Source: Candidatus Bathyarchaeia archaeon
Lineage (GTDB): Archaea; Thermoproteota; Bathyarchaeia; TCS64
Direction of reading: 5' to 3'
DNA length: 34,626 nucleotides
Assembly (NCBI GenBank): GCA_050014495.1
Contig: JBEKDF010000033.1
Span: forward strand, 1-34,626
The position numbers and the translations under genes are program-made. The notes beneath the pieces were generated by a model that saw only the letters and a program-made list of their open reading frames with translations, did not search any database and was not told where the DNA came from. Shown piece by piece: positions 144 to 34,511 of the stretch (positions are counted from its first letter, which is position 1; each line of letters opens with the position of its first letter).

Positions 144-258
144 GGACTATCAATGCGTCAGCCAACAAATAAACGCGTACTTGCGCGCATATAGAGAAAA
201 TACGAAATGCGCGCGATGATGTATGAAGGATTTATCGACGCGGCGCTCAGGTCAAACC

Positions 259-777
259 ATGAGCGCTGTAGTTTGTGGACTCGACATCCACAAGGAAACC
301 ACCTACGCCACCATACTTGACCGAGACGGCCAAGTACTGATCCAGAGGAAGATGCAGAACGAGGACATACCCCTCTTCCTCGAGATGACCCACCCAGATA
401 AGCTGGCGATGGAGGCCTCCACCTACATCATCCCACTGTACAGGAAGCTCACCGAACACGGGTACGACGTGACCGTCAGCCACCCGAAGAAGACAAGGAT
501 CATCGCCGAGGCAAGAATCAAATCTGATAGAGTAGACTCAAGAGCCTTAGCGGAGCTGCTGAGGCTGGACAGCTTGCCCACTAGCATCATACCCCCGAGG
601 GATATTGCGGCGATCCGGGAGAAGGTACGCTGAAGGGCATTCCTCGTCCGCCAGGTGACGAAGCTCAAGGTCAAGATCCGCGACGTCCTCGCCGCCGAGG
701 GCGTCAAGCCACCCACGGGCTACGGCCTCTTCACCGTGAAGGAAGTCCAGTGGCTTAGCTCACGCGAATGTATCTAA
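259..777 (+). pseudogene. IS110-family transposase, N-terminal DEDD domain only
   Basis: Motifs CGLDIHK, AMEAS and IKSDRVDSRALAELLR. In-frame TGA at 631-633; the frame continues RAFLVRQVTKLKVKIRDVL and breaks off near CACGCG (761-766). C-terminal domain missing. Confidence 0.88.
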
Positions 778-803
778 TATAACCATGATAAAAAGGAAGG
801 TTA

Positions 804-2195
804 TTACTGTTTCTTTGGCAGATTGAATTTTTTCTCTGTTTCCTTTAAGGTCTCCTCGAGGATCTTCAACCCCTCATCAGCCTGCTCTTCAGTCATGACA
901 AGAGTCGGCATCATTCGAATAATACTAGCACCATAACCCTTCCCGACCATAAGGCCACTCTTCTTCGCTTTCTCAATCACATAAAGCATCGAGTTAAAAT
1001 CAGGGTCACCACTTTGCTCTGGGGTCATACCATGCGGTTGAAGCTCCTCCTTAGTTTCAGGGTTTGCCACAAGCTCGACACCCATGAAGAGACCAAGGCC
1101 GCGCACATCACCCATGATGGGTAACCTCTCCTGCATCTCCTTCAGCCTCTTGATCATGTAGGCACCGGTAGTAGCCGCCCTTTCGGCCAGTTTCTCTTTA
1201 TAGTAATAGTCAATGACCGCGAGGCTTGTGGCACAAGCAAGGGCGTGGCCGCTGTAGGTGTAGCTGTGGGCGAACCCATGCTCATCGAAGTAATCTCCCA
1301 GTTTCTTGTTCACGATGGTGGCTCCTAAGGGGACATAGCCAGCTGTTATTCCCTTGGCGAGGGTCATTATATCCGGTACAACGTTCCAGTGTTCATAGGC
1401 GAACATCTTTCCAGTTCTAGCGAAGCCCGTCATTATCTCATCGAAGACCAGGAGAACACCTTTCTCATCGCAGATCTTCCTAATCCTTTGCCAGTAGTCC
1501 GGCGGCGGAACTACTTGGCCAGCCCAGCTGCAGATGGGCTCCGCGAAGAAGGCTGCAACTTGCTTCTCTCCCTCTTTCTCAATTGTGTATCGGATGAACT
1601 CTGCGCAGAGTAGGTCGCACTCTGGATATGTCTTTTTGTAGACACAGCGATAGCAGTAGGGCGAGGCCACGTGCTTAAACTCCTCTATAATGCTCAGGCC
1701 TGGAAGTCTGCTGCGGGCGCTGCCTCCGATGCTTACGGTGGCGTAGGTTGAGCCATGGTAGGCGTCCCAGAAGCTGATCATCTTCTCTGCAGATCTGTAG
1801 CTCTGAGCTAGTTTGATCGCTACCTCATTGGCTTCTGCTCCACTGTTGCCAAAAAAGGTCTTACAGAGTTTGCCTCCCGTGATCTGAGCGAGGCGTTTCG
1901 CGAGCTGGATTTTTGGTATGTTATTGTATTCGGGTGAAGCATATGCCAGTTCATCTAATTGTTTCTTGGATGCCTCGATTATTTCGCGATTTCCGAGACC
2001 GATGTTGACGTTATATAATTGGGAGCAGAAGTCAAGGTATCGTTTTCCTTCAGCGTCCCAGAAGTAGGCTCCTTCTCCCCTGACAACGATGGGATCTTCT
2101 TTGTTTGGTCTCGGTTCCCACCTTGGAATTAGGTAGGACTTTGCATCAGAGTGAAGACTTTTTACCTCATTTTCTTTTTTTAACTTTTCACTCAT
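804..2195 (-). CDS. Class-III PLP-dependent aminotransferase
   Basis: GEGAYFWDAEGKRYLDF, SGAEANE, YHGST, FDEIMTGFARTG, DIMTLAKGITAG (PLP lysine), DVRGLGL. Start placed at MSEKL; the ORF track extends to 2225. Confidence 0.95.
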   Translation of the reverse strand: MSEKLKKENEVKSLHSDAKSYLIPRWEPRPNKEDPIVVRGEGAYFWDAEGKRYLDFCSQLYNVNIGLGNREIIEASKKQLDELAYASPEYNNIPKIQLAKRLAQITGGKLCKTFFGNSGAEANEVAIKLAQSYRSAEKMISFWDAYHGSTYATVSIGGSARSRLPGLSIIEEFKHVASPYCYRCVYKKTYPECDLLCAEFIRYTIEKEGEKQVAAFFAEPICSWAGQVVPPPDYWQRIRKICDEKGVLLVFDEIMTGFARTGKMFAYEHWNVVPDIMTLAKGITAGYVPLGATIVNKKLGDYFDEHGFAHSYTYSGHALACATSLAVIDYYYKEKLAERAATTGAYMIKRLKEMQERLPIMGDVRGLGLFMGVELVANPETKEELQPHGMTPEQSGDPDFNSMLYVIEKAKKSGLMVGKGYGASIIRMMPTLVMTEEQADEGLKILEETLKETEKKFNLPKKQ

Positions 2196-2256
2196 AATTA
2201 ACCCTGGAATAATAACATCCATCAAATATGATATGGTTTACTCTTGCACCGCGCGC

Positions 2257-2371
2257 TGCCCTGTCCCTAAATTCAGAATAAACTTATCTTAACAGTGAAG
2301 GGTCCCGTCACCTATGGCGGCAACTAGAGGGGGTCAGTCCGTTAGGACAAGACGAACACGAGGCCCTTGAA
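2257..2371 (+). mobile_element. Left end of an IS4/IS5-like DDE element with the first ~10 transposase codons
   Basis: Terminal motif TGCCCTGTCCCTAAATT matches 30970-30986 and 34512-34528. About 2290-2371 aligns with the reverse complement of ~31677-31762 (LGQDEHEALET vs LGQDEHETLET). Bounded by tracts at 2251-2256 and 2372-2385. Confidence 0.8.
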
Positions 2372-2676
2372 ACGCGTGCGCGCGTCGATGTTCGAGAGTG
2401 TCGCGGGACGCGTCTTGATGTTCATGTCATGTACACCGTTTTCTGAGGTTTTTGTATCGGCGTTACGTAGTTAAAGTGGTTATGACGCGCTTGACTCAAT
2501 ATACTACTCGTTTACTCTTGGTGTGACAGATCCTCTGACAACAAGCCCATAACGGTGAGCGCGCATGCGTTCCTATCGCGGTCTGTCATTGGATCACCGT
2601 CGTGACTGCAGCCTAAGGCTGGACGACCACATTCAGCCCGAGAGGTTTATACATTCGACGGGTGGAAATGCAATTC

Positions 2677-3123
2677 ATGAGCGAAACCGAAAAGAGCGTC
2701 CCCCACGAACAGCTTCTCGTCTTCACAGGCCTGCTTGCCGGTTTTTCGTTTACAGCGTTGATGCTGATGCTGTAGTCCCCCGGGTCGTTCCGTGAGCTGA
2801 TCGGGCCAACGTATTCTGACGCCTACTTCGTCCTTCTGGTGAGCATACTAGCAATCGTTTCCACGGACCTGGTTTTCTGCAGCATCGGAATGTCACTTGC
2901 CGCGGCGGGATCGGACCCCTACGGGAGGCTGTGGAGCTTCAACGGCGTAACCTTCTACATTGGGTTTTTCGGGCTGTTGCTGGTCATTCCTCTCCTAGTC
3001 CTCCCCGTATCTCTCGTCACTGGCTTGACGGTCTTCGTGTTCGAGTTATTGTTTGGAGTCTGGCTCTTCAAGCGGGCTCCAAAGGTGCCGTTGAGGTCCC
3101 CCTATCACGAGCCTAACAATTGA
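2677..3123 (+). pseudogene. Multi-pass membrane protein (~148 codons) interrupted by one in-frame TAG
   Basis: ATG at 2677 gives MSETEKSVPHEQLLVFTGLLAGFSFTALMLML, then TAG at 2773-2775, then the same frame continues into track ORF 2839..3123. Confidence 0.65.
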
Positions 3124-3382
3124 CTATGGTGCGCGCGCTGTTTCCAAGCCCTCACAAGAACCCAAGCCGCGACAAATCGGCTATTATCGAACCGACAGAT
3201 ATCAAGAATGTAACAAGGTCAGATTTTGTCAGAGGGTTGAGAAGAAATACTCACCCAAAGATGCCGCTGATTAGAAAAACACTCAGTCCGCGCGCGCGTT
3301 CCCCAGCGCGCGCGTCTCTCGATTAGAACCTCTAATCTGCAATCGATAAATAGTCGTTTTTGTTAGAGTTTATTGACGCTGT

Positions 3383-3508
3383 ATGAGCGATGATGAGCTT
3401 AGATTGGCCTTCTTCGGGGTGGGGTTAACCCTTGCATTTCTCGGCCTGAGGTTTGCGCTGAGCGGGGATTTTGATAAGGTTAAAGACTATCTACGAATCA
3501 AAAGATAA
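3383..3508 (+). CDS. Small single-TM protein (41 aa)
   Basis: Manual translation MSDDELRLAFFGVGLTLAFLGLRFALSGDFDKVKDYLRIKR*; flanked by tracts at 3306 and 3511-3529. Confidence 0.5.
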   Translation: MSDDELRLAFFGVGLTLAFLGLRFALSGDFDKVKDYLRIKR

Positions 3509-3529
3509 GATGCGCAATACGCGTGCGCA

Positions 3530-4963: not shown

Positions 4964-5124
4964 TGGTAGTTGTCGTTAACTGTATTTGAAATTTAAGTTG
5001 CGCGTGCTACCTTTGATGCACGCGAGTGCATTTGATCCACCGGTCTAACATGCTCATGAACGCGCGCGCGTTTACTATTCACGTAAGCTTATCACCGGTT
5101 CCTCCAAAACAAATGGGTAGCATT

Positions 5125-5415
5125 ATGTCTAAGGAGAAAAAGGGTACCCTGGCCGTTAAGAAGGAAAAGAAAACAGTGCCAGAAGCAAAAGAACCTGAAC
5201 CCGAAACTATTCAGGATTTCAACCAGATGTTAGATACGCTTCGCAGTGAGATAGTGTGGGATCCCTTCAGGGGATTCGAGTGGCCTGTAGAATACGAGCT
5301 TCCGACGAGGATACCCTATGTTGACGTCATTGACTCAGGTAAGGAGTATGTGGTTAAGGCTGAGCTTCCGGGGTTGAAGAAGGAGAATGTGGAGATTGAG
5401 GTCGGCGCGCGCTAG
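5125..5415 (+). pseudogene. Hsp20/alpha-crystallin small heat-shock protein, 3'-truncated
   Basis: PYVDVIDSGKEYVVKAELPGLKKENVEIEV, then GCGCGCGC (5405-5412) and TAG. The second half of the domain is absent. Confidence 0.88.
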
Positions 5416-5528: not shown

Positions 5529-5701
5529 ATGAAACGCTATAAAGAATATTCGTGCGCGCGCTGAAAGTCAACTTTCTATTTTCCATTTAATACGCGCACG
5601 TAGGTTAATCCGGTAGTCATTTTGTGAGCTCGTTTACCCCCTCAGTTTAGCGCGTGTCCGAATTGAAAAGTAGTTATTAACCCTCAGGAGGGTGTATATG
5701 T

Positions 5702-6358
5702 ATGCCATTCTGTCCATTCTGCGGGACACCTGTAAAGGAAAACCACAAGTTCTGCCCAAGTTGTGGCAACCCGCTGGAGCTCGTTCCCCAGATACCGACT
5801 CCAACACCCCAAGCGACACCTACTCCGCAACCCCAGCAGCCACAGCAACCAGCCTCTGCACCTCAGCCAGCCGCAGCGCCTCAACCCCCACAAGTGCAAA
5901 CGACACAGGGGGAGACGATAAGAGAGATTATACCCAACCTAAGCGTCTCTAAGAGCTTCGGCAGAACCGACACCTACAACCTCATAGTCACGGAGAGGAG
6001 AAGCATCTTCGCGAAGCTGACGACCGAGATCATAAATGAAACGGTGAAGATGAGACGCGATAAGGCCGCGGCGGAGGGAAAGGGCTTCTTCGGGAAGTGG
6101 AAGGCCCAGATGCAGGGCTTCAACACCTACACGGACTGGTACAAGGATAAGACACCCGACCAAGCACTGGGTGAGACACCAGGCAACTACGCCATCGACA
6201 ACTCCGCAATGAGAAACATCAAGGTAAAGGAGGACAGCGATGATGATAGCGGCATGGACCTGTACTACATCGAGATAACGACTCCAACGGGGAAGCTTAA
6301 ATTCAAGACACCGTATGACCCCCGGAAACTCCTTCAGGCGGCTTATGGAGGCGCGTAG
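5702..6358 (+). CDS. Zinc-ribbon protein with Pro/Gln-rich linker
   Basis: MPFCPFCG...KFCPSCG ribbon, PQ-rich linker and a globular C-terminal domain. Confidence 0.88.
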   Translation: MPFCPFCGTPVKENHKFCPSCGNPLELVPQIPTPTPQATPTPQPQQPQQPASAPQPAAAPQPPQVQTTQGETIREIIPNLSVSKSFGRTDTYNLIVTERRSIFAKLTTEIINETVKMRRDKAAAEGKGFFGKWKAQMQGFNTYTDWYKDKTPDQALGETPGNYAIDNSAMRNIKVKEDSDDDSGMDLYYIEITTPTGKLKFKTPYDPRKLLQAAYGGA

Positions 6359-6381
6359 TACGAGTCTACCGCATATGCCAA

Positions 6382-6408
6382 AGTCTTATCCCCCAAACCC
6401 AAACCCAA
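6382..6408 (+). repeat. 27-bp direct repeat, copy 1 (IS-terminus-like)
   Basis: AGTCTTATCCCCCAAACCCAAACCCAA, identical to 7390-7416; followed by ATATGCGCGTGCGCA at 6413-6427. Confidence 0.85.
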
Positions 6409-6653
6409 CCTTATATGCGCGTGCGCAACTAAATGATTGAGCTGGATCGGAGACCACCTAACCAGCATCACTTCTTCCGATCCTCCTCTCATTTTTAACC
6501 CGGCACTCTGGGAATCCACCTCTTAATCTCGCCAAGCGTGCCCCTCAGATACTTGGAAGAGTTGAGCTTAGCTTGGTCAAAATATTAAACGAATAAATGA
6601 TTATTAGTGCAATAGTGATTAAATTTATATGTATTTTTATCAAATTATACAAT

Positions 6654-6863
6654 ATGGCCTTTCTTAAACGAATTTATCAAGATGTCCAAGGAGTGAGTTG
6701 TCCATTATGTGGAGCATCTGTATTGAAAGATGCGAGAAATGCAAAAAAGATAACTTATTTCTGCAGCGGAAAAACAACCCACGACCTAACAAATAACAAG
6801 ACCATAAAGGCCTTTTTAATTGGAGAAGCACTAACCCGAGATCACAAACGCGCGCAAATCTAG
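6654..6863 (+). pseudogene. Small CxxC protein, probably 3'-truncated
   Basis: MAFLKRIY...CPLCG...FCSG; ends shortly after ACGCGCGCA (6848-6856). Confidence 0.45.
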
Positions 6864-6915
6864 AACGAATGAGGATGTTGAAATAGCACAATGTAAAAAT
6901 GGCTATTGAGGGATC

Positions 6916-7167
6916 TTGAAGGCATACATTCTTGTTAACACTGAGCTAGGGGAAACGTCGGAGGTCGTCAAAGAATTGAAAGGGATTATTGAGATCAAGA
7001 GTGTCTACGTCGTTTACGGCATCTACGACATAATAGTTGAAGTGGAGGCTGACACTATGGACAAGGTGAAGGAGATAGTCTTCAACAAGATCAGGCGCCT
7101 CAATTACGTGAAGAGCACTATCACACTCATAGCTTATGATGAGCCAATGCGCGAGCAGGTTCTATAA
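6916..7167 (+). CDS. Lrp/AsnC ligand-binding (RAM) domain protein
   Basis: KAYILVN...VYVVYGIYDIIVEVEA...IRRLNYVKSTITLI. Confidence 0.92.
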   Translation: MKAYILVNTELGETSEVVKELKGIIEIKSVYVVYGIYDIIVEVEADTMDKVKEIVFNKIRRLNYVKSTITLIAYDEPMREQVL

Positions 7168-7197
7168 AGAAAAGTCGACCATATTAACTCGGCATGC

Positions 7198-7344
7198 ATG
7201 AAGAAAGATCCTATCTGCGGTAAGATGGTAGATGAAAAGAAGATAAAATGGAGAAGTGATCACAAAGGTAAGAAATACTACTTTTGCAGCGAAAAACACA
7301 AACTAACATTTGATGAGAACCCAAAACGATTCGCAGCTCCATAA
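7198..7344 (+). CDS. YHS/TRASH domain protein (48 aa)
   Basis: Manual translation MKKDPICGKMVDEKKIKWRSDHKGKKYYFCSEKHKLTFDENPKRFAAP*; DPxCG and YYFCS motifs. Confidence 0.92.
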   Translation: MKKDPICGKMVDEKKIKWRSDHKGKKYYFCSEKHKLTFDENPKRFAAP

Positions 7345-7389
7345 TGTGCGCACAACGGCAGATTTTTTTAAAACTTTGAATTACTCCAT

Positions 7390-7416
7390 AGTCTTATCCC
7401 CCAAACCCAAACCCAA
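7390..7416 (+). repeat. 27-bp direct repeat, copy 2 (IS-terminus-like)
   Basis: Identical to 6382-6408. Confidence 0.85.
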
Positions 7417-7603
7417 GAACTTTCACTAATTCTTATCTATTCTCATCTACTATCTTACTTTCTTATTCTTTCCATCACTACACCACATCGTATCACGTAT
7501 ATCGCGTAATCTACAGAAAAAAAATACCTATTATAGAACTACGAATAGAAAGTTTAAAAATATAATCACGTTAGGACTATCTATCATAAATATATTGAGT
7601 TCA

Positions 7604-8523
7604 CTATTTTCTCAAACCTTTTATAACTTCTAACATTTTTTTATTAAATATTTCTTGACTTCGATTTATCCCATAGTTGATAAAATCAGCGGGAACATAA
7701 TCTTGGAAAATTGAAGGTATAATTGATCTGTCTCCTCTAAGTATTATGGGTACAAATCTTTTTCCATCATAAATTCTTTGTCGCATTATTGTATTTTTTT
7801 CTATTTGTGCCCAGCCTATTTCTTCAAAATAATCTGGCGTCCAAATCATTATCGATTTATCATAACTATCAAGCATACTGGTAATCTCCTTATTTAGAGA
7901 ATCACCGGGTACAATATTTAATTCATCAAATAAAATATCAAATTCGATGCTATGATATTTCTTTAAATAATTAACAACTTCATTAGCAAACCACTGATCA
8001 ATTTTCTTATAACTAATTAATATTTTTAATTTTTTACTGATATGTTTTTTTCACTGACCTTTACAATTGGTAATTTATTATATTCTAATCCAGAAAACGG
8101 TTCATTTAATGCTGTTGGTACAGCCTTTTTTGGTTTAAATATATATTTTGAGATTTTTTCACGATTTTTAATGGAAATTCTACCAGGTGGAATCATAAGT
8201 TTTGTTAAAAAATCTTTTCTATCATATTCCATAGCTACATCAATAGCCTCACTTATTTGATATTCTTCAAAAAAACTAGGCCAATTAAAAAGAAATTGTA
8301 AATGATCTATTGACCACAAACCTCTCGATTCCTTAATAACTTCAAATACAAATTCTGATTTATACAATTTCGGTACGTCAATAATTTTTTTTAAACGATT
8401 AGCATAGCCATTTCGAGCTAAATATCTAATTGCTCCAATAACTTCATCATCTGAATGTTTTAGATAATTTGTTATTATATATAAAGCTAAGTTTAAACTT
8501 TCATCCACCATATTAGTTATCAA
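7604..8523 (-). CDS. TIR-domain protein (helical N-terminus plus C-terminal TIR) split by a -1 frameshift at ~8029-8051
   Basis: The -1 frame reads KKLKILISYKKIDQWFANEVVNYL...LFDELNIVPGDSLNKEITSMLDSYDKSIMIWTPDYFEEIGWAQIE, a TIR_2 pattern with the catalytic Glu. It has no start codon ahead of the domain and overlaps the end of ORF 8026..8523. Very AT-rich segment. Confidence 0.8.
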
Positions 8524-8687
8524 TGAAAATGCACAAACCTTTCAAACTATCACCAGATTATAACTCTAAATAATGTTTATCCTAAAGCGATCTGCGCTCG
8601 CGCAAAGAATACAAATCCCCTAAAAAACAAGAAATAGGTCATAATTTTTAATATCGGAATATTGTATTTTCGCGCGCGCGAAATAAA

Positions 8688-8927
8688 TTGGTTCACGAAT
8701 ACAAGGTTGAAAGAAAGCTTCAGGAGCAGGGTGGCTCCTACTTCGTCGTCCTTCCCAAGATCTGGATTGAGTCTCTAGGTCTGAAGGAAGGCGACCCTAT
8801 GTCAATCTTTTTTAATGGAATAATCAAAGTGGTGCCTTCCGATAAACAAACTATCGGGGAGGATAGAAAGATCAACAAATTGGGAGGGCATCCTCATGCG
8901 TCTCCAAGACAGCTGTATCCCATGTGA
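8688..8927 (+). CDS. AbrB/MazE/SpoVT-type DNA-binding protein
   Basis: RKLQEQGGSYFVVLPKIWIESLGLKEGD. Confidence 0.85.
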   Translation: MVHEYKVERKLQEQGGSYFVVLPKIWIESLGLKEGDPMSIFFNGIIKVVPSDKQTIGEDRKINKLGGHPHASPRQLYPM

Positions 8928-9009
8928 AGCAGTCGAGAACCCTTCTCCTACCGCGCACGAAAATATTATTAGTCAGTTATTGACTTCTAATTTTAGGGAG
9001 ATTTTAAAA

Positions 9010-9195
9010 ATGCCAGGAGAAATAGGTAAAAAAGGAGATATTAGACAATATCGTGAAGACGCACAAATAGGTAATGTTGCACCTGATATTCAAAAACACT
9101 TTGGTTACCGTTCTGACAAGACAGTTAAGGCAGTCCTTGAAGAGAACCATGTTACGTCTATCGCTAAGTTAAGAGAAAAAATAGGATTAAAATAA
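9010..9195 (+). CDS. Small basic hypothetical protein (61 aa)
   Basis: MPGEIGKKGDIRQYREDAQIG...; lies between tracts at 8952 and 9217. Confidence 0.55.
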   Translation: MPGEIGKKGDIRQYREDAQIGNVAPDIQKHFGYRSDKTVKAVLEENHVTSIAKLREKIGLK

Positions 9196-9291
9196 GATTT
9201 ACGAGATAAAACAGACTGCGCGCGCGACGCCTCGATATTAATGGTAAGGATTTTATGTATTGGGGTTTAATGAACAGATGGAGAGACTTTT

Positions 9292-9717
9292 ATGTCATTC
9301 TTGGATGAAACAAAAAAGAAGGCTGAGGAAGCTGAAAATAAAGCCTCTGAAGAAGTAAAGGAAGTCGCGGGTGCGCGCATGTCTTTTTGTTCGAACTGCG
9401 GTAAGGAGTTGGACTCTGAATCGAACTTCTGCCCCAAATGTGGTGTGAGAACAGAGAATGGAGTAAAAGCGGGTGTGGCTATCCCTTGGGTCTCGGACCC
9501 ACATTTGAGGCAGGAATTGGATGTTGCGCTGCAGAAGGCTTCTAAAGCTATTGATGAAGGTGTGAAGATCGTGCGGGAGACCTTGAGGGAGGTAGCGGGT
9601 GAGGTAGAGAAGGGCGTGAAGCAGGCTCGTACGAGTGTGCCCGTCAGCTGTCAGAACTGTGGTCAGGAAAATACGAAATTTGCAAAGTTCTGCAGTAGGT
9701 GTGGCAAGGAGCTCTAG
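9292..9717 (+). CDS. Double zinc-ribbon protein, apparently fused in frame to an unrelated 27-codon N-terminus
   Basis: The ribbon gene MSFCSNCG..FCPKCG...CQNCG..FCSRCG starts at ATG 9379, directly after GTGCGCGC (9371-9378). Confidence 0.85.
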   Translation: MSFLDETKKKAEEAENKASEEVKEVAGARMSFCSNCGKELDSESNFCPKCGVRTENGVKAGVAIPWVSDPHLRQELDVALQKASKAIDEGVKIVRETLREVAGEVEKGVKQARTSVPVSCQNCGQENTKFAKFCSRCGKEL

Positions 9718-9741
9718 GTTCGCTATCTCCTATGCGCGCGC

Positions 9742-9942
9742 AATATCGGTTTCACGAAAGACCTCTCTGAGCAGACACGCTTATTAGATGAGCTAAAGCG
9801 CTCTGAGGAGGAGTACAAAACTATTATTGATTCTGGGCTTGATGGTGTATCTATTACAGTAGAGGAAAAGTTGGTTTTTGTCAGTAAAGTAATGGTCGCT
9901 ATGCTTGGTTACTCCAAGGAGGAATTATTGGGGGGAGATATC
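9742..9942 (+). pseudogene. Internal fragment of a PAS-domain sensor
   Basis: NIGFTKDLSEQTRLLDELKRSEEEYKTIIDSGLDGVSITVEEKLVFVSKVMVAMLGYSKEELLGGDI; no start codon; tracts at both ends (9731-9742, 9942-9950). Confidence 0.85.
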
Positions 9943-10097
9943 GCGCGCGCCTCCTGAACGTAGCGATGAGGGCGTACATCGAGCGCGGATTTAAAAGACC
10001 ATCTAGTCATCTTTCACCCTACGAGCGCATAGTTAAGAACCCGCCTATATAATAATTCAAACCAAGCGGTATCAGTAACCGGGTCATGTGGTTTCCA

Positions 10098-13729: not shown

Positions 13730-13845
13730 CAAACGCACTACTCTTGATCGCGCAGGCAGTAGAGTGAACAAGCGCGCGCGGTGTTGGGTGTCCTATGTGT
13801 TGGCGCGTGCGCATACTCGAAAACATGCATTTACTTTATAGCGCT

Positions 13846-21913: not shown

Positions 21914-22072
21914 TTGGAGAAAAATGTCCAAATCATACCTCTTGGCTATGAGATCGACTGGGTGGTGAAGCCGTTCGAGGACCCCAACGGGTTCAGAGCC
22001 AATCGAGTGTACCTCCTCTCAACATTTGAGGGTGTGGATGCCAGGCATGTGCGCGTGCACAATATTTCCTAA
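21914..22072 (+). pseudogene. N-terminal fragment of a DUF6293-like archaeal regulator
   Basis: MEKNVQIIPLGYEIDWVVKPFEDPNGFRANRVYLLS; cut at GCATGTGCGCGTGCACA (22045-22061). Confidence 0.7.
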
Positions 22073-25073: not shown

Positions 25074-25186
25074 AGTCAAATTTAGGCTGCTTTTTTGCAT
25101 TTGCTTTCTTCACAGGTATTTCGAGTGTGTGCGTGCGCATTCAATTACGGGTAGAATAACCTTTTAGGTGGATACCACCGGTTCCG

Positions 25187-26197
25187 CTAATTGTTATCAT
25201 ACGCTTTTGTATTTTTTAGAAGATTCCTTGATATTTTTAGGTGTTTTATGAACCAGTCGTAGTCTCCATTGGGGAATATTACTTCGAGTTCGTCTGGTCC
25301 TCTTCGTCCCTGGTATTCACCGAGGATGATGACTTTCCCCACCTTCAGGAAGCCCATCACGTTGGCTAGTGTCTGGATTAGGCGCATGAAGCACCTGTGG
25401 GTGACTAGGCCTGACTCGATGGTTTTTGGGAGTTGGAAGAGGAAGTAGTCGAGGTTCTCAATCTTGCAGTAGTCGACCATCGCCGCGTCGCAGGTGAGGA
25501 CGACGGGGTAGACGCCGTGGATGCGTTTGTAGAAGCTGATGGTCCTCGTGAAGACGTCGTCGTTCCTCTCCTTGTCGGATGTGGTCTGGGCTGCGGCCTC
25601 GACCAGGAGGGCGTGGCTGCTCAGGGCCTCGTACTCCCTCAGGGCGAGGGCCGCGGCCTTCCTGGACTGCTTCATCCGCTGGTTGAGGAGCATGTCCCAG
25701 AGCTGGTGGTTGTAGGGTGTGCTGTGCTTCAGCTCCTCTATTTGGTGTGGGCCGTGTTTGTAGTTGAGGTGGGCCCTGATCTCCTCCTTGACGGTGTCTG
25801 AGAGTATGACCTTGTTGGGGTCGATGAGCTGGGTGGTTGTGAGGAATCCGTCGTAGAGGATGTTTGTGTCCGGGGCGTAGTATACTCGGCCCGTCCTGGA
25901 GTAGCCGTTGAGAGCCCCCTTAAAGTCGGGTAGGTTCGTGTAGGTGGTGGCCCCTGAGGCGAGGCTGCACTCGATGAGATCGTTCCAGGTGGGCCTCTCT
26001 CTGCGCCAGAGGTCTGAGTCGGTCTTGTCATCGAAGCTGGTTGGAGATGCAAGGACATGTAGCTGTACGCCTTCTCGTACCTGCGTTGCCCTAAATAGTT
26101 GTATACCTGTCATCGGATAAGTGACCTCTAGCTCGGGGTATGGTAGGTTGAGGAGCAGCTGGAGCTCGTCCCCGCTTATAGTTGCCTCGTGAGTCAC
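25187..26197 (-). CDS. PIN-domain ribonuclease (long archaeal type)
   Basis: YAPDTNILY, VKEEI, RNDDVF and VLTCD acidic motifs; GTG start overlaps the upstream stop (GTGA). Confidence 0.85.
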   Translation of the reverse strand: MTHEATISGDELQLLLNLPYPELEVTYPMTGIQLFRATQVREGVQLHVLASPTSFDDKTDSDLWRRERPTWNDLIECSLASGATTYTNLPDFKGALNGYSRTGRVYYAPDTNILYDGFLTTTQLIDPNKVILSDTVKEEIRAHLNYKHGPHQIEELKHSTPYNHQLWDMLLNQRMKQSRKAAALALREYEALSSHALLVEAAAQTTSDKERNDDVFTRTISFYKRIHGVYPVVLTCDAAMVDYCKIENLDYFLFQLPKTIESGLVTHRCFMRLIQTLANVMGFLKVGKVIILGEYQGRRGPDELEVIFPNGDYDWFIKHLKISRNLLKNTKAYDNN

Positions 26198-26595
26198 TGC
26201 GGGTGCCTCCTGGCCTCCTCGGCGAAGTCGATCATCAGGTAGTAGATGTGGTCGATGTGCTGCTTGGAGGCCGACAGTATCGCTCCGGCGACGAGAGCCT
26301 TTCTGCCCGGTGTGATGTCGAGGGCCGTCTCGTAGCCCTCATCCTTAAGCCTCTTCAGGTCGGTGCCGATCATGTTGCCCGACGCTATGAAGTCGCCCTC
26401 GTGGACCACCTTTACCTCCACTGTTGGTTGAAAGCCATACTCACTGGAGATGCTGCTTATGTCCTCAGGAATGTTTTGTGTTTCACTGTTTCCCTCCGCG
26501 TAGATCGTTACCTTGTCGGGGTGGTAGCCCTTCTCCTCGAGGACGGCGTAGTAGGAGTTGATAAGGGCCCAGGTGGAGCGGCCGAGACAGAGCAT
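26194..26595 (-). CDS. Stand-alone CARF-domain protein; native 5' end lost at ~26586
   Basis: LGRSTWAL (strand 1/loop) and ALDITPGRK CARF signature. The first three codons (MLC) come from the antisense strand of the AOR fragment. Confidence 0.75.
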   Translation of the reverse strand: MLCLGRSTWALINSYYAVLEEKGYHPDKVTIYAEGNSETQNIPEDISSISSEYGFQPTVEVKVVHEGDFIASGNMIGTDLKRLKDEGYETALDITPGRKALVAGAILSASKQHIDHIYYLMIDFAEEARRHPQ

Positions 26596-28038
26596 CTAAT
26601 CAGAAAAGAGACGGGCTTCAGCGACACCGCCATAGTAGCCGAGGGACCAGCATCGGAGAACCTAGTAAAATACTCTGCCGTGACTCATACCGCTCACCGC
26701 GCCGCTGGAAGAACCGGCTTGGGAGCCGTCATGGGCTCCAAGAAGCTGAAGGCGATCGCGGCAAGAGGCACCAATAAGGTCGAGGTCGCCTCCCCCGAGA
26801 AGGTGAGAGAGCTCCAGAAGAAGATCACTAAGGAGACATTCGAGAGCAAATTCACCTCCACCCTCCGAGAGCACGGCCAGATCGGATTCCTCCTAGACCT
26901 AAACAACGACGGGATTCTCCCCACCAAAAACTTCCAAAGCGGCGTCTTCCAAGGAGCCAACAAGATCACGGGGCAAACACTGACGAAACAATTGCTGAAG
27001 ACGAGAGAATCATGCCCCAGATGCCCAGTAGCATGCAAACGAGTCGTGGAAGTCAAAGAAGGGCCCTACGCCCCCGTCTCACCCGAGTACGGGGGACCAG
27101 AGTATGAAAGCACCGCCGCCCTCGGCTCGTTACTATGCATAGACGATTTAGAAGCCATATGCCGAATGAACATGCTATGCAACGCATACAGCCTTGACAC
27201 GATCTCAACCGGAGTCTGCATCGCGTTCGCGATGGAGTGCTACGAGAACGGACTCCTATCCAAGGAAGACACCGGGGGACTGGAGCTAAACTTCGGAAAC
27301 GCCGACGCCGCCATCAAGCTACTCGAGATGATCTCATCAAGGGAGGGCCTAGGCAACCTATTAGCTGAGGGAGTGAAAAAAGCAGCGGAGAAAATCGGGC
27401 GAGGATCAGAGAAATACGCAGTAGAAATAAAGGGCCTGGAGATCCCCATGCATGAGCCCAGAGGAAAAAAGGGCCTCGCCGTAATGTATGCGACCTCCAA
27501 CAGAGGCGGATGCCACATGCAGAGCATGCACGACACAGACATCGAAGCCCCCAACATGGCCCCCGAAATAGGCATGACCAAGGCACTAAACCGATTAGAC
27601 ACCTCCAGAGAGAAGGTCCTATACCTGAAGAAGACAGGCGACTGGACCGCCATGATCAACTCAATGGGGCTCTGCTCGAACATCTACTGGTTCGGAGCCG
27701 TCTACTACAGACCAAGCCAACTAGTCGAGATACTGAACGCAGTGACGGGCTGGGACTACACAGTGGAGGACTTCATGACGACGGGCGAAAGGATCAACAC
27801 CTACTGCCGAATGTTCAACATCAGAGAAGGCATAACAAAAAGGGATGACAGCCTACCACCACGCTTCATGGAACCCCTCATAGGGGGACCCACCAACGGA
27901 CAGTTCATCTCAACCAGGGAAATCGAATCCATGCTCGGTGACTACTACGAGATATGTGGCTGGGATAGAGAAACTGGAATCCCTAAGAAGGAGAGGCTAG
28001 CAGAACTAGGCTTAGTGAACACTGAAATTGGTTCATAA
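26581..28038 (+). pseudogene. aor: Tungsten aldehyde:ferredoxin oxidoreductase (AOR family), 5'-truncated
   Basis: GPASENLV, AAGRTGLGAVMGSKKLKAI, CPRCPVAC, GPEYES, LDTIS, GCH. The N-terminal part is absent; track-ORF residues before 26581 are antisense CARF sequence. Confidence 0.88.
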
Positions 28039-28232
28039 CTTCTAATTCACTCAGCGCGCGCATCGATCTAAAAAAATAATTAATTATCTAGAACGTATAG
28101 GTGCTATGCATGCGCGCATAATAATATCCTATTTCATTACAATATTTGCCTCAAGTAATGTTTTTCTGTGACAAATCCCATAAACAATTCACGTATATGA
28201 CGCGATAATGCGATTTCGTAAGAGGTGATGCG

Positions 28233-30416
28233 ATGGGTGATGAGACTAAGAAGGATTATAATAACAATTTTGGTAAAAACGGGGCAGAATTCTCGAAGAG
28301 TGATTTCGAAGAGACTATTCTAAATTTGAATGATCCGAGATTGTATATTAATAGAGAGCTTAGCTGGCTCAAGCTACATGAGAGGATTCTTGAGGAGAGC
28401 CGAGACCCTAATCATCCTCTTCTAGAACGTGTGAAATTTCTCGCAATATGTGGGGGCAATCTCGATGAATTCTTCATGGTTCGAGTTTCAGCGCTAGATA
28501 AACAGGTTATGAATGGTTCCTTTAAGCTATCCCCAGATGGTATGACTCCTCATGAGCAGCTTGTAGCCATACGCCGTGAGGTTTTATCGATTCTCCGGCT
28601 TCACGAGGATGTTTGGAATCGCGAACTCCTACAAGAGCTCGCGGAAGAGGGAATCCGTATAATGCGAGTTGTCGATCTAAACGAGAGTCAACAGATTGCT
28701 GTAAGAAAGTATTTTGAGCTCCAAATTTTTCCTGCGTTAACTCCTCTGGCACTGGATAGCGCAAATCACTTCCCATTCATAAGTAACTTGAGTCTGAACC
28801 TGGCTGTAATTTTACGTGACAAGAAAAAACATGAGTGGCTAGCAAAAGTAAAAGTTCCAACTAACATCTTCCCGCGGCTTCAGCAGTTACAACTAGAAGA
28901 ATACGAGGAAGATGTGGATAGACGTGTTGCAGATCATGGTATCACCCTACTTTTTCTCGAGGATATTATCGCTTCAAATTTAGATCAGTTATTTCCCGGT
29001 ATAGATATCGTTTCAGCATACCCGTTCAGAATAACACGTGACGCAGAAGTTGAAATAAGCCTAGACCAGACGAGTGACCTCTTAAACGTCATCGAAGAGA
29101 GTATCAAGACACGCCGATCCGGTAAATGTGTACGCCTCGAAGTCGATAAATCGATGCCTGAATCACTCAGAGAAGTTTTCATGAAGAACATGGGTCTAAC
29201 ACCTGACGCAGTCTACGCATTCGACGGACCACTTGGATTCATTGACTTTTGGCAATTATTGAAGATCGACCGCCCAGACCTAAAAGACAAGACCTTTCTC
29301 CCCTTCATGCCCACTAAACTCCGTCAAGGAAGAGATTATTTCAAAGCCATTTCAAAGCGCGATTATGTCCTGTACCATCCCTATGATAACTTTAATGTAT
29401 TGATCAATCTACTGAAACAAGCCGCTGTCGATCCCGGTGTATTGGCGATAAAAATCACCCTTTACAGGATAGATAAAAAGAGTCCCATCGTTGATGCTCT
29501 AAGGCAAGCAAGCCGACACAGAAAGAATGTTACAGCACTTGTCGAATTGAAGGCCAAGTTTGATGAGAAGAATAACATCAACTGGGCTAAGCGGTTAGAG
29601 CATGCAGGTGTACATGTAGCCTATGGTTTCCCAGATCTCAAGGTCCATGCGAAACTGTGCCTTATCGTAAGAAAAGAGGGAGATAAAATAATCAGGTATA
29701 GTCACCTTAGCTCTGGGAATTACAACTCCGTTACATCTCGCATCTATGGGGACATCGGATATCTGACTGCCAACCAGGAGATTGGCACAGAGGTCAACAA
29801 CCTATTCAACTACCTTACCGGCTACAGCCAGAAAGATGATTATAGTTGCCTTCTAGTGGCACCGAAGACGCTCAAAAAGGAGATTATTAGTCGAATAAAT
29901 AGGGAGATAGAGAGGCATCAAAAAGATGGAAATGGGTACATCGCAATTAAGGTTAACAACCTCGATGACAAGGACATCATTAAGACTCTGTATTTAGCGA
30001 GTCAGGCAGGAGTAAGAGTTGACCTGAATATCCGTGCTCTCTGTTGTCTTCGCCCAGGCATTAAAGGTGTCAGCGATAATATTAGGGAGATTAGCATCAT
30101 AGGGAGATTCCTTGAGCATTCAAGAATTTATTATTTCAGGAATGGAGGAGAGGAGGAGGTGCTGCTTGGAAGCAGCGACCTCATGCCAAGAAACCTCGAG
30201 AAGCGAATCGAGGTGTTGTTCCCCGTCCCTGATCCGCGACTTCGTAGATTAATTATAGATAAAATGTTGAATGTTCACCTAAATGACACGGTTAAAGCGA
30301 GAGAGTTGATGCCGGATGGATCCTGGAAACGCGTGAAACCGATCGAAGGTAAGGAACCAATTAATTCACAGCAGTGGCTGATAGACCATAAAGGTGAATG
30401 GCACAGCAACCGATAA
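28233..30416 (+). CDS. ppk1: Polyphosphate kinase 1
   Basis: YINRELSWL, NLDEFFMVRV, HFPFISN, HPYD, ELKAKFDE, KVHAK, GRFLEHSR, DLMPRNL; GAGGTGA RBS. Confidence 0.97.
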   Translation: MGDETKKDYNNNFGKNGAEFSKSDFEETILNLNDPRLYINRELSWLKLHERILEESRDPNHPLLERVKFLAICGGNLDEFFMVRVSALDKQVMNGSFKLSPDGMTPHEQLVAIRREVLSILRLHEDVWNRELLQELAEEGIRIMRVVDLNESQQIAVRKYFELQIFPALTPLALDSANHFPFISNLSLNLAVILRDKKKHEWLAKVKVPTNIFPRLQQLQLEEYEEDVDRRVADHGITLLFLEDIIASNLDQLFPGIDIVSAYPFRITRDAEVEISLDQTSDLLNVIEESIKTRRSGKCVRLEVDKSMPESLREVFMKNMGLTPDAVYAFDGPLGFIDFWQLLKIDRPDLKDKTFLPFMPTKLRQGRDYFKAISKRDYVLYHPYDNFNVLINLLKQAAVDPGVLAIKITLYRIDKKSPIVDALRQASRHRKNVTALVELKAKFDEKNNINWAKRLEHAGVHVAYGFPDLKVHAKLCLIVRKEGDKIIRYSHLSSGNYNSVTSRIYGDIGYLTANQEIGTEVNNLFNYLTGYSQKDDYSCLLVAPKTLKKEIISRINREIERHQKDGNGYIAIKVNNLDDKDIIKTLYLASQAGVRVDLNIRALCCLRPGIKGVSDNIREISIIGRFLEHSRIYYFRNGGEEEVLLGSSDLMPRNLEKRIEVLFPVPDPRLRRLIIDKMLNVHLNDTVKARELMPDGSWKRVKPIEGKEPINSQQWLIDHKGEWHSNR

Positions 30417-30487
30417 AACCGGGCCCTTTTGTAGACAGGGAATGAGGCAAATAGATAGTCTACTCCACTTCCTTGAATCGCGCGCGC

Positions 30488-30888: not shown

Positions 30889-30969
30889 TCTAAACTACAA
30901 ATAACCATTATTTTTATGATATTTAATTCTATGTAATGGATACTTCATGTGATAGAGTGGGATGCGCGC

Positions 30970-31801
30970 CGGCCCGTCCCTAAATTAAATACTCTAGAAC
31001 AACAACCACCAACAAAACCCAACAATCAACCCCAACGAAGATCCAACACCCATAAAACCCCACTGACAAACCACACCACCAGCAAGACGACTGTAAAAAC
31101 GACACAGACAAGCCCAGCACCCACTAACAACGGCCCACCCCAACCCGAGACGCCGGCCGTCACACGTTGAAGAACGTAGGCGACAACGCCTTATCCGACC
31201 TGCCCAGATTCTCCGCCGCCTCCCGATTCAACACGCAGCACAACACGCTAAGCAGCGCATACACCGACACGTTCAGCAGACCCCTCACCCTGTTCACCGT
31301 CAACCCATACTGGTTCTTCACAAAGGCGAACAGCGCCTCAACAGCGGGCCTCCTACGATACAACTCCACCAGATCCTCCGGGCCATGAGTCCTGAACCTC
31401 CGGTCCACCCGAAGCACATCCTCACCCCGCCTCTGGCCAGCCGTATAAGGAATAACCGAGTCCTCCACCAGGCCCCTCACCCTCCCGCTGCTGTACTGGC
31501 TATCAGCGATCAGACACCTCAGCTGGGCACCCACCCTCGATAGGACCATTCGGCTCCTCTCCACCAGCGTCGAAGCGTGCCTCTTCTCGTTCTCGTTCGC
31601 GCGCGCGGTCCGGTGGTGTGGTAACATCCGAGGAGTTGCTGTTGGGCAATGCTTAAGTCGACGTTTTTGAAGAGTGTTTCAAGGGTCTCGTGTTCATCTT
31701 GTCCTAAGTGAACTCACCTCCTCTGGTTGGGCAGACCGTTGGGGGACGAGACCCCAACTGTATTCATCAGGTTTGGAAACCCTTAACCTTTAGACGGGAT
31801 C
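30970..31801 (-). mobile_element. IS4/IS5-like DDE insertion sequence with a large internal deletion
   Basis: Right end CGGCCCGTCCCTAAATT. C-terminal transposase 31160-31597 has ADSQY and the YREK signature YRRRPAVEALFAFVK. N-terminal ~33 codons (31707-31608, LGQDEHETLETLFKNVDLS...YHTTGP) lie in another frame. The parts are joined at CGCGCGCGCG (31598-31607). Left boundary is approximate. Confidence 0.88.
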
Positions 31802-31978: not shown

Positions 31979-32012
31979 TTTACAATCAGTTCCCCAGAAA
32001 GCGCGCGCGTGC

Positions 32013-32090
32013 TCCACCCAGCTCAGTGATGTTGGGTGAGTCGCCTCGGTGAATCAGGAAGCCCACCTCTTTAGAGGTGGGTAGCTCACA
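32013..32090 (+). mobile_element. Right end of an IS200/IS605 (tnpB-type) element
   Basis: GAATCAGGAAG, hairpin CCCACCTCT-TT-AGAGGTGGG (32062-32081), then TAGCTCAC, the typical right-end layout. Tracts at 32001-32012 and 32107-32113. Confidence 0.82.
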
Positions 32091-32183
32091 GATTAAAAAA
32101 TACTCTCGCGCGCTAGCCTCCACAATTTTTTAAACCGCTCAGATAATCCAAAGAGCACAGTAGCGAAGGTAAGGCGAAGGTAA

Positions 32184-33317: not shown

Positions 33318-33374
33318 TGCTCGTGTGTCTGTACGCTGCGCGCGCGAGAACTCCTCGTCATGCGCGCGCGCACG

Positions 33375-33553
33375 ATCTCGTCGTTTGGTACCTCCTTTAG
33401 ATCGATGAACTTGAGCTTGTGTCCCTCATCCAGCACCTTCTGGACAATCACCCTTACCTCCTCAAGAGACGGCACGACGCCTCCACCCCCCGTTGAGAGG
33501 GAGGTGCTGCCAATCTGGTAATCTAAAACATCCTCTAGTGTCAAGTATTTCAT
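33375..33553 (-). pseudogene. DUF917-family protein, N-terminal ~60 codons only
   Basis: MKYLTLEDVLDYQIGSTSLSTGGGG...IDLKEVPNDEIV; cut at CATGCGCGCGCGCACG (33359-33374). Confidence 0.75.
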
Positions 33554-33714
33554 CGGTGTTATCAACTATCCTCGGCATCAATATTGTATATAACAATTCT
33601 GAGCGATATTATTGACAGCATATTTCGATCTCGTGGCGTCTACTCTATGCAACTCATTTTAGTCGAGGCATCATAGCTAATGATATAAACCTCCAATCAA
33701 TCGTTGCATGTAAC

Positions 33715-34383
33715 ATGAAGAAGATTGGCATACTGACGATAGGACAATCTCCCAGACCAGACGTCGTGGGGGAGTTCCTGCGCGTCCTCGGCAGCGACTA
33801 CAAGATCATTGAAAGGGGCGCGCTCGACGATTTCTCTATCGAGGAGCTGAGGAGCAGGAAGGTGGCGCCCGGAGAGAGAATACTCGTCACAAAGCTCAGG
33901 GACGGGGAGGAGATCAAGGTATCGCATGACCTCGTCATATCCAACATACAGAAGGGCATCGACTACCTCGAGGGAAAGACGGTGGACATCATCCTCCTCC
34001 TTTGCACGGGCAATTTCCCCGAGTTCAAGTCCAAGTGTCTCGTAGTCCAACCCTCCGACATCGTCAGGGGGGTAGTCAAGGGGTTGCTCAGAAGCGGCAA
34101 GCTGGCCGTGGTCGTCCCAGCGAGGGAGCAGATACCGAAGGGTAAGTCGGACGCCTTCGGGAAAGATGTCGAAGTCTACTACGATACTGCCTCCCCGTAC
34201 GGGTCGATGGCCGAGTTCAAGGAGATGGCGGCCAGGATCTCGAGGGCGAACGTGGATCTGGTGTTCCTCGATTGCATGGGCTTCACACATGAGATGAAGC
34301 AAGTGGTAAAGGAGACGACGGGAAAACCCGTCATCCTATCAAACGCGCTGGTTGCACGCGTCCTGCAGGAGATCGCCGAGTAG
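33715..34383 (+). CDS. AroM-family protein
   Basis: LTIGQSPRPD, GALD, LVTKLRDG, LLCTGNFP, ASPY, LDCMGF. Confidence 0.92.
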   Translation: MKKIGILTIGQSPRPDVVGEFLRVLGSDYKIIERGALDDFSIEELRSRKVAPGERILVTKLRDGEEIKVSHDLVISNIQKGIDYLEGKTVDIILLLCTGNFPEFKSKCLVVQPSDIVRGVVKGLLRSGKLAVVVPAREQIPKGKSDAFGKDVEVYYDTASPYGSMAEFKEMAARISRANVDLVFLDCMGFTHEMKQVVKETTGKPVILSNALVARVLQEIAE

Positions 34384-34421
34384 CTGCTTTTTGAATCGAT
34401 CATTATAGAGGACGCGCGCGC

Positions 34422-34503
34422 TCCCTGACCCGGCGGCTGCTGATCTGGCTGTCCCCGATCAGGCACCTCAGCCTCGCCTCGGCCCATTCAAGCACCATTC
34501 TAG
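34422..34503 (-). pseudogene. ~80-bp internal fragment of the same DDE transposase family
   Basis: RMVLEWAEARLRCLIGDSQISSRRVRE vs RMVLSRVGAQLRCLIADSQYSSGRVRG in the 31160-31597 copy; tracts at 34412-34421 and 34505-34511. Confidence 0.85.
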
Positions 34504-34511
34504 CCGCGCGC

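Follow-up and report, generated by a model that had tools for sequence, protein, structure and literature searches.

The GC runs and the genes around them

The window analyzed here, the whole stretch of 34,626 bp, is one contig of a Bathyarchaeia archaeon of peat, whose assembly is a MAG of 92 contigs. It contains many pure alternations of G and C with a GCGCGC core, which we call runs and which were counted at lengths of at least 6 or at least 8 bp. The window has 39 pure runs of at least 6 bp (mean of shuffled windows, 9.1), 37 of them with GCGCGC, and 22 of at least 8 bp (shuffled mean, 0.41); 25 (GC)n 8-mers with one mismatch come in addition to the pure runs. Genome-wide, we found 459 pure runs of at least 8 bp against 54–75 expected, a 6- to 8-fold excess. 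As had been stated in the preliminary description, the runs lie in spacers and junctions and are scarce in coding sequence: 402 of the 459 are outside ORFs, and 25 are located deep within them. Seven pure runs of the window fall within the ORF list. Five of these are ordinary coding matches, including 11252, 13446, and 33818, and two are themselves junctions, namely a fusion at 9373 and a truncation at 33362.

The length of the runs varies between 6 and 10 bp with a sharp ceiling at 10 bp, which only 12 runs exceed genome-wide; among 123 10-mers, 12 extend further, compared to about 46 expected by chance with random placement. The longest pure run of the window has 12 bp (15385..15396) and is spanned by an X6 contig without any difference. 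The variable length and the rarity deep in ORFs distinguish the runs from HIP1, which has a fixed sequence and is common in coding DNA, as the preliminary description had held. The flanks are flat beyond 2 bases without conserved arms, and together with the absence of the core from parental sequences this argues against att/attC-type sites, which have conserved binding arms and a core that is present in the parents. Avoidance of restriction was rejected as a cause, because GCGC and CGCG are not under-represented. Single internal mismatches are C>T or G>A in 165 of 228 cases. The GT/AC variants noted earlier thus exist, but they mostly reflect decay after formation and not the original sequence. 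No C5 methyltransferase to which this C>T decay could be ascribed was found in the five genomes tested.

Near the left end of the window, a run (209..215) adjoins an IS110 transposase remnant (223..633, + strand; PF01548, E 4e-13). Its left side is a new junction, with no run in the parental sequence C73 (97.5% identity), and at its right side the remnant has inserted; the same run with the IS110 start also occurs at C9 and hC19. The run at 2250..2256 is one half of a target duplication at an IS5/IS1182-like end, the TIR motif of which starts at 2257. This end fragment (2257..2373, + strand) is 95% identical to C61 up to 2373, where it is truncated by a partly decayed scar (2373..2384), and the parent continues without a run. 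A cluster of spacer runs (2559, 3131, 3289, 3306, and 3520; 2559..3527) reaches the beginning of a block of a sister population at 3525, and a sister block ends at 5032 among decayed and pure runs between modules (5000..5070). The gene at 5125..5404 (+ strand), which we take to belong to the Hsp20 family and which had no Pfam match, lost its 3' part at a scar with two new sides (5405..5412), to which the left parent contributes one base and the right parent none. The intact paralogue C17 and the sister allele run past 5405, and the sister population has, in another copy, a separate scar at a different site.

Spacer runs continue at 5554, 5593, 6417, 6849, 7149, 8594, 8671, 8952, 9218, and 9373 (5554..9378), and a sister block (6853–7148) sits between two of them. 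A PAS-domain fragment (9734..9950, + strand; PF13188, E 6e-4) lies between the runs 9734–9741 and 9942–9950. Within a dense cluster of runs (13772..14061), positions 13841–13895 are a 55-bp copy (96% identity) of 18417–18471 that a new run terminates at 13896, and the parental copy has no right-hand run. Further runs are at 17861, 18417, 18514, and 19319 (17861..19325). The module at 20389..22058, between runs 20389–20397 and about 22046–22060, corresponds to a sister block (20397–22045), the contig of which continues with other DNA at both sides. Contigs of X6 and X9 span the runs at 25131, 28054, 28112, and 30479 (25131..30487), and the paralogue C30 ends at 30478 without a run. The IS5/IS1182-like remnant at 30964..31761 (− strand; PF01609) carries one run terminally (30964) and an internal deletion of 455 bp that is sealed by run 31598–31607, with no run at either parental side. 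At the runs 32001 and 32107 (32001..32113), the parent C19 (97%) has one base in common. A PF06032 (DUF917-type) gene (33338..33565, − strand), with another run at 33338, is cut at run 33362–33371, with which the intact G016 orthologue (88%) shares one base. A run with a captured IS fragment follows (34413..34504), the parents of which are free of runs and next to which a sister block ends (34411). The contig breaks in an IS end behind half a target duplication (34505..34626, + strand); this end is identical at five other contig ends, each preceded by GCGCGC. No Rfam match was obtained in the window, L192, or L034.

The preliminary description had listed genes that stop or start at such tracts. 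Comparison with intact homologues upholds this for the Hsp20-like gene (5405), the PF06032 gene (33371), and the IS remnants that end at 2373, 31598, and 34413. Judged in this way, the flanks of runs 209, 13896, 30479, and 32001 are also cut at the run. Three further boundaries were assessed by other evidence: PAS paralogues (C18 and C36) match 9741–9942 at the protein level only (tblastx), the endonuclease boundary at 18513 is based solely on a 39% protein match, and that of the DUF6293-like gene at 22045 on the end of the sister block. The runs at 2250, 30964, and 34505 are halves of IS target duplications.

Runs at breakpoints and their absence from parental sequences

Sharp ends of homology to a relative bear a run in 52 of 127 cases at a minimum identity of 85%, in 36 of 83 at 88%, and in 16 of 31 at 91%, with a background of 2–4%. 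Runs therefore mark 41–52% of the sharp ends, which is an enrichment of about 20-fold, and about half of the sharp breakpoints carry no run. The run signature is confirmed to be real and not an artefact. The three observations by which the preliminary description would have been refuted were all looked for, and none was made: assembled contigs of sequencing runs that had not been flagged as a possible source cross the junctions without differences, intact homologues have no runs, and runs are enriched at breakpoints.

At 79 new junction sides, the parent and the run have 0, 1, 2, 3, or 4 bases in common in 25, 37, 12, 3, and 2 cases, respectively, compared to 60, 15, 3, 1, and 0 expected by chance. 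An overlap of at least one base hence occurs at 54 sides versus 19 by chance, 74 sides have 0–2 bases, and A is the last parental base at only five, in a comparison made with DNA from outside the TA-flanked lineages f17, f23, and f37. At 29 of 90 sides, non-GC extra bases, recurrently AT or CAAT, stand ahead of the run, and these may be template or alignment noise. Six collinear deletions (89–1470 bp) and two small replacements each carry a run, with parents of the deletions that are only 75–91% identical. None of the six deleted intervals contains a pure run of at least 6 bp, and one has an 11-bp decayed alternation inside. In none of 14 collinear cases had a parental GCGCGC been expanded. 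Parent-free junctions were found at 96–100% identity, and in C32, a 163-bp fragment is flanked by new runs at both ends (parent, 96–97%). Same-length matches of seven bases within genes were dropped as synonymous coincidences.

With a probability of roughly two in three, we believe that the runs at deletion, capture, and fusion joints are written by primase-type (AEP) end joining and that IS elements adopt them later. An AEP polymerase would start from the terminal one or two G/C bases of every 3' end and give the broken end an alternating GC tail. Such self-complementary tails would then anneal, any two ends could be joined, and the joint would comprise up to about 10 bp. IS5/IS1182-like elements, with their 6-bp GCGCGC duplication, and IS110 elements would later take these scars as targets. 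The data support the previous view of the runs as scars of end joining or deletion. The location at breakpoints, the lack of runs in parents, the overlap of 1–2 bases, the length ceiling, and the insertion of IS elements into runs that were already there are observed; tailing, annealing, and the enzyme are what we infer from them.

Transposons in the runs and rival explanations

GCGC is present immediately outside about 140 of 150 IS ends at the fetched loci, and most exceptions are interrupted by IS110. The transposase combines DUF772 and DDE_Tnp_1, and its scores are below the NCBIfam cut-offs for both IS5 and IS1182. Together with short TIRs and a palindromic target, this resembles the IS5/IS1182 family including IS1272 (PMC5678879, accessible part); in comparison to IS1272 as covered there, the present elements have a (GC)n target and a 6-bp duplication, and they appear to use the runs and not to make them. 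In 14 of 24 pairs of one set and 28 of 56 of another (the sets overlap), the longest direct repeat around the IS measures 6 bp, and in most others it is 4 or 8 bp. IS-adjacent runs amount to 79 of 1142, and only these have the properties of target duplications. That IS5/IS1182-like and IS110 elements target runs had previously been overlooked, and some runs consequently represent target duplications instead of fresh scars.

The IS110 elements agree with bridge recombinases in the CT core and the 5' non-coding guides to the left and right target, as far as covered by the accessible part of PMC11208160, and this likeness concerns a secondary user of the runs only. At 12 distinct ends, the left guide is NNGCGCGCT-like, and the right guide scores 70 matches out of 84, a value that shuffled sets (mean, 60.4) reached in 27 of 5000 trials. 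Judged by their sequences, the guide segments match and covary with the target run, and the guide has evolved to read runs. The result is a layered parasitism, in which IS5/IS1182-like elements land in the scar and IS110 on the border of scar and IS.

The close association raises the question of whether the runs are a product of the IS5/IS1182-like clade itself: they might be its target duplications and excision footprints, or the elements might patch breaks together with their GCGCGC flanks and excise afterwards. The clade occurs in 15 of 30 run-rich versus 30 of 171 other genomes, an IS or MITE lies inside the run in two collinear deletions, three of the 13 youngest junctions adjoin an IS compared to 79 of 1142 overall (p = 0.056), and IS elements are able to insert into breaks that are already present (10.1101/2024.06.02.596822). 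We nevertheless consider this origin unlikely. The left plus the right run minus 6 mostly gives 5–12, which is the size of solo runs, the empty sites L237 and L270/C88 already hold a run, and no IS is present at ten of the 13 youngest junctions; the lack of expanded parental GCGCGC is also unfavorable. For 15 of the 30 run-rich genomes (most are incomplete MAGs), the search yielded no transposase of the clade, PF01609 was not found in seven of ten, including the single-contig genomes G145 and G047, and the IS-bearing G076, G073, and G067 have only 3, 2, and 16 nine-mer matches. As empty sites hold a run and no such transposase was found in G145, the most run-rich genome, the elements most likely exploit scars and do not make them.

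If pre-existing (GC)n runs were fragile sites that attract breaks through Z-DNA or hairpins and recombine with each other, nothing would need to be written. Some runs do serve again as breakpoints, 33 of 80 sides found in common diverge beyond the run (many of them are IS ends), and the instability of long (GC)n could contribute to the length ceiling. However, most sides for which a homologue exists (207 of 341) are new, and neither the genome-wide excess nor runs inside simple deletions would be explained; the parent-free junctions largely refute this very improbable alternative. Similarly improbable are Ku/LigD end joining or PolX as the writer of the runs. G000 and G016 have Ku beside LigD-Pol and also PolX, but LigD-Pol occurs in 13 of 23 run-rich genomes of the families versus 20 of 48 others (p = 0.31). 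The search did not detect it in genera g5 and g21, and G001 and G010 have it at 0–1 matches. PolX is encoded in families free of runs, and the search for it in f17 and f23 was mostly negative. Library or assembly chimeras would have to be considered with a MAG of many contigs, and we compared assembled contigs and not raw or long reads; among the sequencing runs X13–X24, all with small shares, the comparison covered X14, X15, X20, and X23. X6 and X9 contain the same junctions unchanged, runs are common to several species and decay by transitions, single-contig genomes also have them, and the IS110 guide has adapted to them. As far as contigs allow, chimeras are therefore refuted.

Candidate enzymes and related systems

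No enzyme tracks the run signature fully. Of the enzymes suggested for a distribution check, Ku/LigD, PolX, and RT do not follow the runs, while close relatives of the AEP P0001 (G000 C53) occur in 8 of 30 run-rich versus 5 of 171 other genomes, some of which are kin and not independent. P0001 is predicted to be a PriS-like stand-alone AEP with catalytic motifs, as D99, D101, D205, and SGxxG are invariant among 66 relatives (model pLDDT 92). No relative was detected in 22 of the 30 run-rich genomes, with G145, G172, G194, G154, and G143 among them, nor on viral contigs, and the association may merely reflect the general load of mobile DNA. We tentatively regard this accessory family, possibly copying RNA, as a candidate writer that could well be wrong. 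Core PriSL is a weaker possibility. PriS is intact in run carriers and likewise in genomes without runs, so that it does not discriminate, and four aligned PriS copies showed nothing distinctive. Another enzyme seems slightly less probable still. A 439-aa AEP at C20 (close matches in 5 of 71 genomes) and the PolB sets do not track the runs, and neither RT nor PolY was found in the five genomes tested.

More speculatively, and rather doubtfully as a whole, a mobile stand-alone primase might copy a short GC template of its own small RNA onto any broken 3' end in a telomerase-like manner. All ends would become mutually cohesive through this programmable universal glue, which would assemble genomes as mosaics in Bathyarchaeia at large and in one or more further families of Thermoproteota, and two families of transposons would have found their niche in the scars. 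Searches next to the AEP copies of G000 and of 2.66 Mb of G016, all of which are truncated, yielded no template RNA. Upstream of the P0001-type gene, 75 conserved nt read as a TATA box with a divergent ribosome site and start, and the runs that follow its stop codon differ from copy to copy. The multi-copy sequences that qualified best as a template RNA were presumably a small zinc-ribbon gene, a histone-like gene, rRNA/tRNA, and IS110 guides.

A short defined repeat is likewise added to DNA ends, after a priming overlap of 1–2 bases, by telomerase and in de novo telomere addition. Telomerase caps one end, whereas the (GC)n product joins two, and neither an RT (five genomes) nor a template RNA was found here. 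Ku/LigD end joining of bacteria and Methanocella also employs an AEP polymerase that adds bases and bridges microhomology, but the added bases are few and have no fixed repeat, and Ku/LigD does not go along with runs. DRT3, as far as the accessible account goes, also adds a defined short repeat to ends as protein-templated dinucleotide DNA. From the same phylum comes the PriSL microhomology end joining/PADT of Sulfolobales, an archaeal AEP reaction that, according to the accessible parts of two papers, joins ends through 2–4 G:C pairs, with C insertions favored beside G/C in vivo (PMC12019639, PMC3333859). The joints described here fit pairing of 1–4 G:C pairs in their overlap and depletion of A. 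In these parts, the PriSL products are mostly 1–2-bp indels without a stereotyped 6–10-bp alternating insert (PMC12019639, PMC3333859), and the words "alternating" and "slippage" do not occur in that of PMC3333859. Literature searches, in a collection with few subscription papers, brought up no account of (GC)n scars at junctions.

Double-strand break repair in archaea without Ku is unsettled (PMC12019639, accessible part), and about half of the recent breakpoints appear to bear the readable mark of a repair route. Deletions, captures, and fusions thus become countable and datable from sequence alone, and candidate enzymes become assayable for a predicted product. An enzyme whose fixed self-complementary tail renders arbitrary ends cohesive would, if true, be a new tool, and the scars account for the layering of IS5/IS1182-like and IS110 elements. 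The phase and flank of the runs vary by lineage, a pattern that variants of the enzyme or the template would produce.

Abundance and placement of GC runs

The window holds 39 pure alternating (GC)n tracts (GC runs) of at least 6 bp against a shuffle mean of 9.1, and 22 of at least 8 bp against a mean of 0.41. The whole genome (G000; 3.1 Mb in 92 contigs, the window being contig C33), whose DNA is present in sequencing runs from peat and wetland, contains 459 runs of at least 8 bp, where Markov models predict 54-75. While ORFs make up 79% of the genome, 402 of these runs lie outside ORFs; 32 sit at an ORF edge and 25 deep within one, and no comparable shoulder exists for AT, GT, and GA alternations. 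The excess in spacers noted in the preliminary description thus stands, but the substituted variants counted there as part of the signature are mostly decay: of the 228 internal single mismatches located away from deep ORF positions, 165 are C>T or G>A. Run lengths have a ceiling: 192 are of 8 bp, 144 of 9 bp, 111 of 10 bp, and only 12 are longer, in comparison to about 46 of 123 expected from random 10-mer placement.

The signature is real and not an artefact. Contigs from two sequencing runs not flagged as possible sources (X6 and X9), compared as assembled contigs only, cross the window's GC runs at 15385, 19319, 20389, 25131, 28054, 28112, 30479, 33362, and 34413 with zero differences, which speaks against library or assembly chimeras. 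At 9292-9717, a double zinc-ribbon gene has gained a short N-terminal ORF, fused to it in frame through a run at 9373. The window also has a repeated non-coding element with CCCAAA repeats (6373-6415 and 7385-7420), which recurs many times across the genome and sister populations.

Runs at breakpoints and in new joints

The comparison covered 2.66 Mb of the 3.1-Mb genome of the closest relative, G016. Sharp homology ends carried a run in 52/127 cases at ≥85% identity, 36/83 at ≥88%, and 16/31 at ≥91%, compared with a background of 2-4%; about half of the sharp ends are therefore without one. Among the 151 run flanks whose homologue was ≥85% identical, 72 shared the run with it, largely IS ends and inherited joints, whereas 79 were new. 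This bears out the earlier proposal that runs sit at synteny breakpoints whose parental flanks lack them. The 79 new sides overlapped the parent (the homologous sequence from which a side derives) by 0, 1, 2, 3, or 4 bases in 25, 37, 12, 3, and 2 cases (chance: 60, 15, 3, 1, and 0), and the final parental base was G in 35, T in 20, C in 19, and A in 5.

Collinear flanks on both sides were found in the other genome for 14 of 771 runs tested. Six of these are deletions of 89-1470 bp whose joint contains a run, with parents only 75-91% identical; two are small replacements (12 by 13 bp, and 9 by 12 bp in frame), and the remaining six are matches of equal length. No pure run of 6 was found in the six deleted intervals; one holds an 11-bp decayed alternation. 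The in-frame replacement by a GC run (G000 C3:76677-76688; PNGG to PRARG, ancestral residues uncertain) leaves the gene otherwise intact and is a scar tolerated in coding sequence. Fragments were also captured, as a 163-bp copy bears new runs at both ends, and window 13841-13895 is another capture. The Hsp20-like gene, described earlier as cut at the tract at 5405, indeed continues intact past this point in a sister population; there, a separate scar lies at a different place in another copy.

The runs form a real junction signature whose occurrence is patchy among lineages. With a probability of roughly 0.68, we take them to be glue that is written as ends are joined. A 3' end whose last base is G or C, or T through wobble pairing, would prime an alternating GC tail, and two such self-complementary tails would then anneal and join the ends. 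This model fits the 1-2-base overlap, the scarcity of A, the novelty of the sequence on either side, and the length ceiling, although later contraction could also produce the latter. That such glue is RNA-templated, and in that case categorically new, is a tentative and rather doubtful idea. A search of the literature, as far as its text was available, returned no published description of such a junction signature, and the accessible part of PMC12776410 does not mention Bathyarchaeia.

Mobile elements at the runs

Transposons of a DUF772 plus DDE transposase clade (about 330 aa, with scores that miss the NCBIfam cut-offs of both IS5 and IS1182) and IS110 elements use the runs. GCGC lies directly outside about 140 of 150 ends of the DDE clade elements, also in members only 32-44% identical; the target duplication is mostly 6 bp, and adding the left and right flank runs and subtracting 6 yields lengths in the same range as solo runs. 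An IS110 element inserts with a CT core where a GC run meets an IS5/IS1182-like terminal inverted repeat (TIR), as in G000 C17:57466-58775 (L034), on C48, at L059, and in G016 copies. Its left guide reads GCGCGCT, and its right guide, within the 5' guide region, covaries with the TIR of the element that it hits (70/84 matches; as high in 27/5000 shuffles). A second IS110 family (window 209-770, G016 hC19:15052-16200, and G000 C63:8018) begins directly after ATGCGCGCG. Its transposase is closely followed by a conserved stretch that includes a GC run, may be its guide, and is itself a target of the other elements.

The main rival explanation, that transposons created the runs, appears improbable to us. 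In its favor, an element lies inside the joint of two collinear deletions, and an IS adjoins 3/13 of the youngest junctions versus 79/1142 overall (p = 0.056); IS entry into existing breaks has been reported in the available text of 10.1101/2024.06.02.596822. However, empty sites (L237 and L270/C88) already hold the run, and the clade, present in 15/30 run-rich versus 30/171 other genomes, was not found in the richest run-bearing genomes, while some genomes that have it are almost free of runs. Likewise, 7 of 10 run-rich genomes searched, including the single-contig G145, gave no PF01609 match. Separately, L238 and L239 share the IS and left flank but have different right flanks, each beyond a run, and represent an IS-adjacent rearrangement between runs.

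Candidate writers and distribution across genomes

The suggestion that Ku/LigD, PolX, or RT genes follow the signature failed: LigD-Pol, Ku, PolX, PolB, PolY, RT, and the C20 AEP (primase-type) proteins were rejected as writers, since their occurrence does not track the runs. LigD-Pol is above cut-off in 33/71 family genomes, and G000 has adjacent Ku and stand-alone LigD polymerase genes (L189, C3:65142-68894). PriS is the only AEP present in all run-rich genomes tested. According to the accessible parts of PMC12019639 and PMC3333859, S. islandicus PriSL joins ends via 2-4 G:C pairs and favors C insertions beside G/C; the joining at the runs would resemble such primase-assisted microhomology joining, but these parts report no alternating insert.

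A candidate writer is P0001, a stand-alone PriS-derived AEP of 268 aa with 93 relatives, invariant catalytic residues, and a confident model. In G000, one copy is nearly whole and several pieces are truncated at runs, whereas the part of G016 read has pieces only. Close relatives occur in 8/30 run-rich versus 5/171 other genomes (by our own cut-off, with kin not independent) and were not found in G145. No template-bearing RNA was found beside any P0001 copy examined, all of which are damaged. The C20 AEP (L192, C20:26047-27707), of 439 aa with a C-terminal extension, follows a 114-aa gene with no Pfam family; it has close copies in five genus members, every one with runs, and the spacer on its 3' side forms hairpins but contains no GC run.

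Many family members have high nine-mer counts and others almost none; the counts are also high in single-contig genomes. By counts only, families f17, f23, and f27 show an excess of AT-flanked 8-mers, as do 8/12 genomes of f37, a family outside the class. Phase and flank depend on the lineage: in G000, AT precedes G (159/604), f17 and f23 have WA...TW flanks, and G007 uses the CG phase, which would be consistent with variants of an enzyme or template. Runs are phase-locked in G143, G145, G150, G151, G156, G172, and G194 and in the f37 genomes G233, G261, and G289, where they far exceed the reverse phase in counts, for example 84:3 and 54:0; in f17 and f23 their flanks are often TA or AA. A contig labelled Anaerolineaceae (L213) has five GC runs of ≥7 bp in 8.6 kb and an IS fragment, and may have been misbinned or transferred. 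Three runs in G021 (C1:357138, 357309, and 357481) are spaced at 171-172 bp and probably belong to a tandem repeat.
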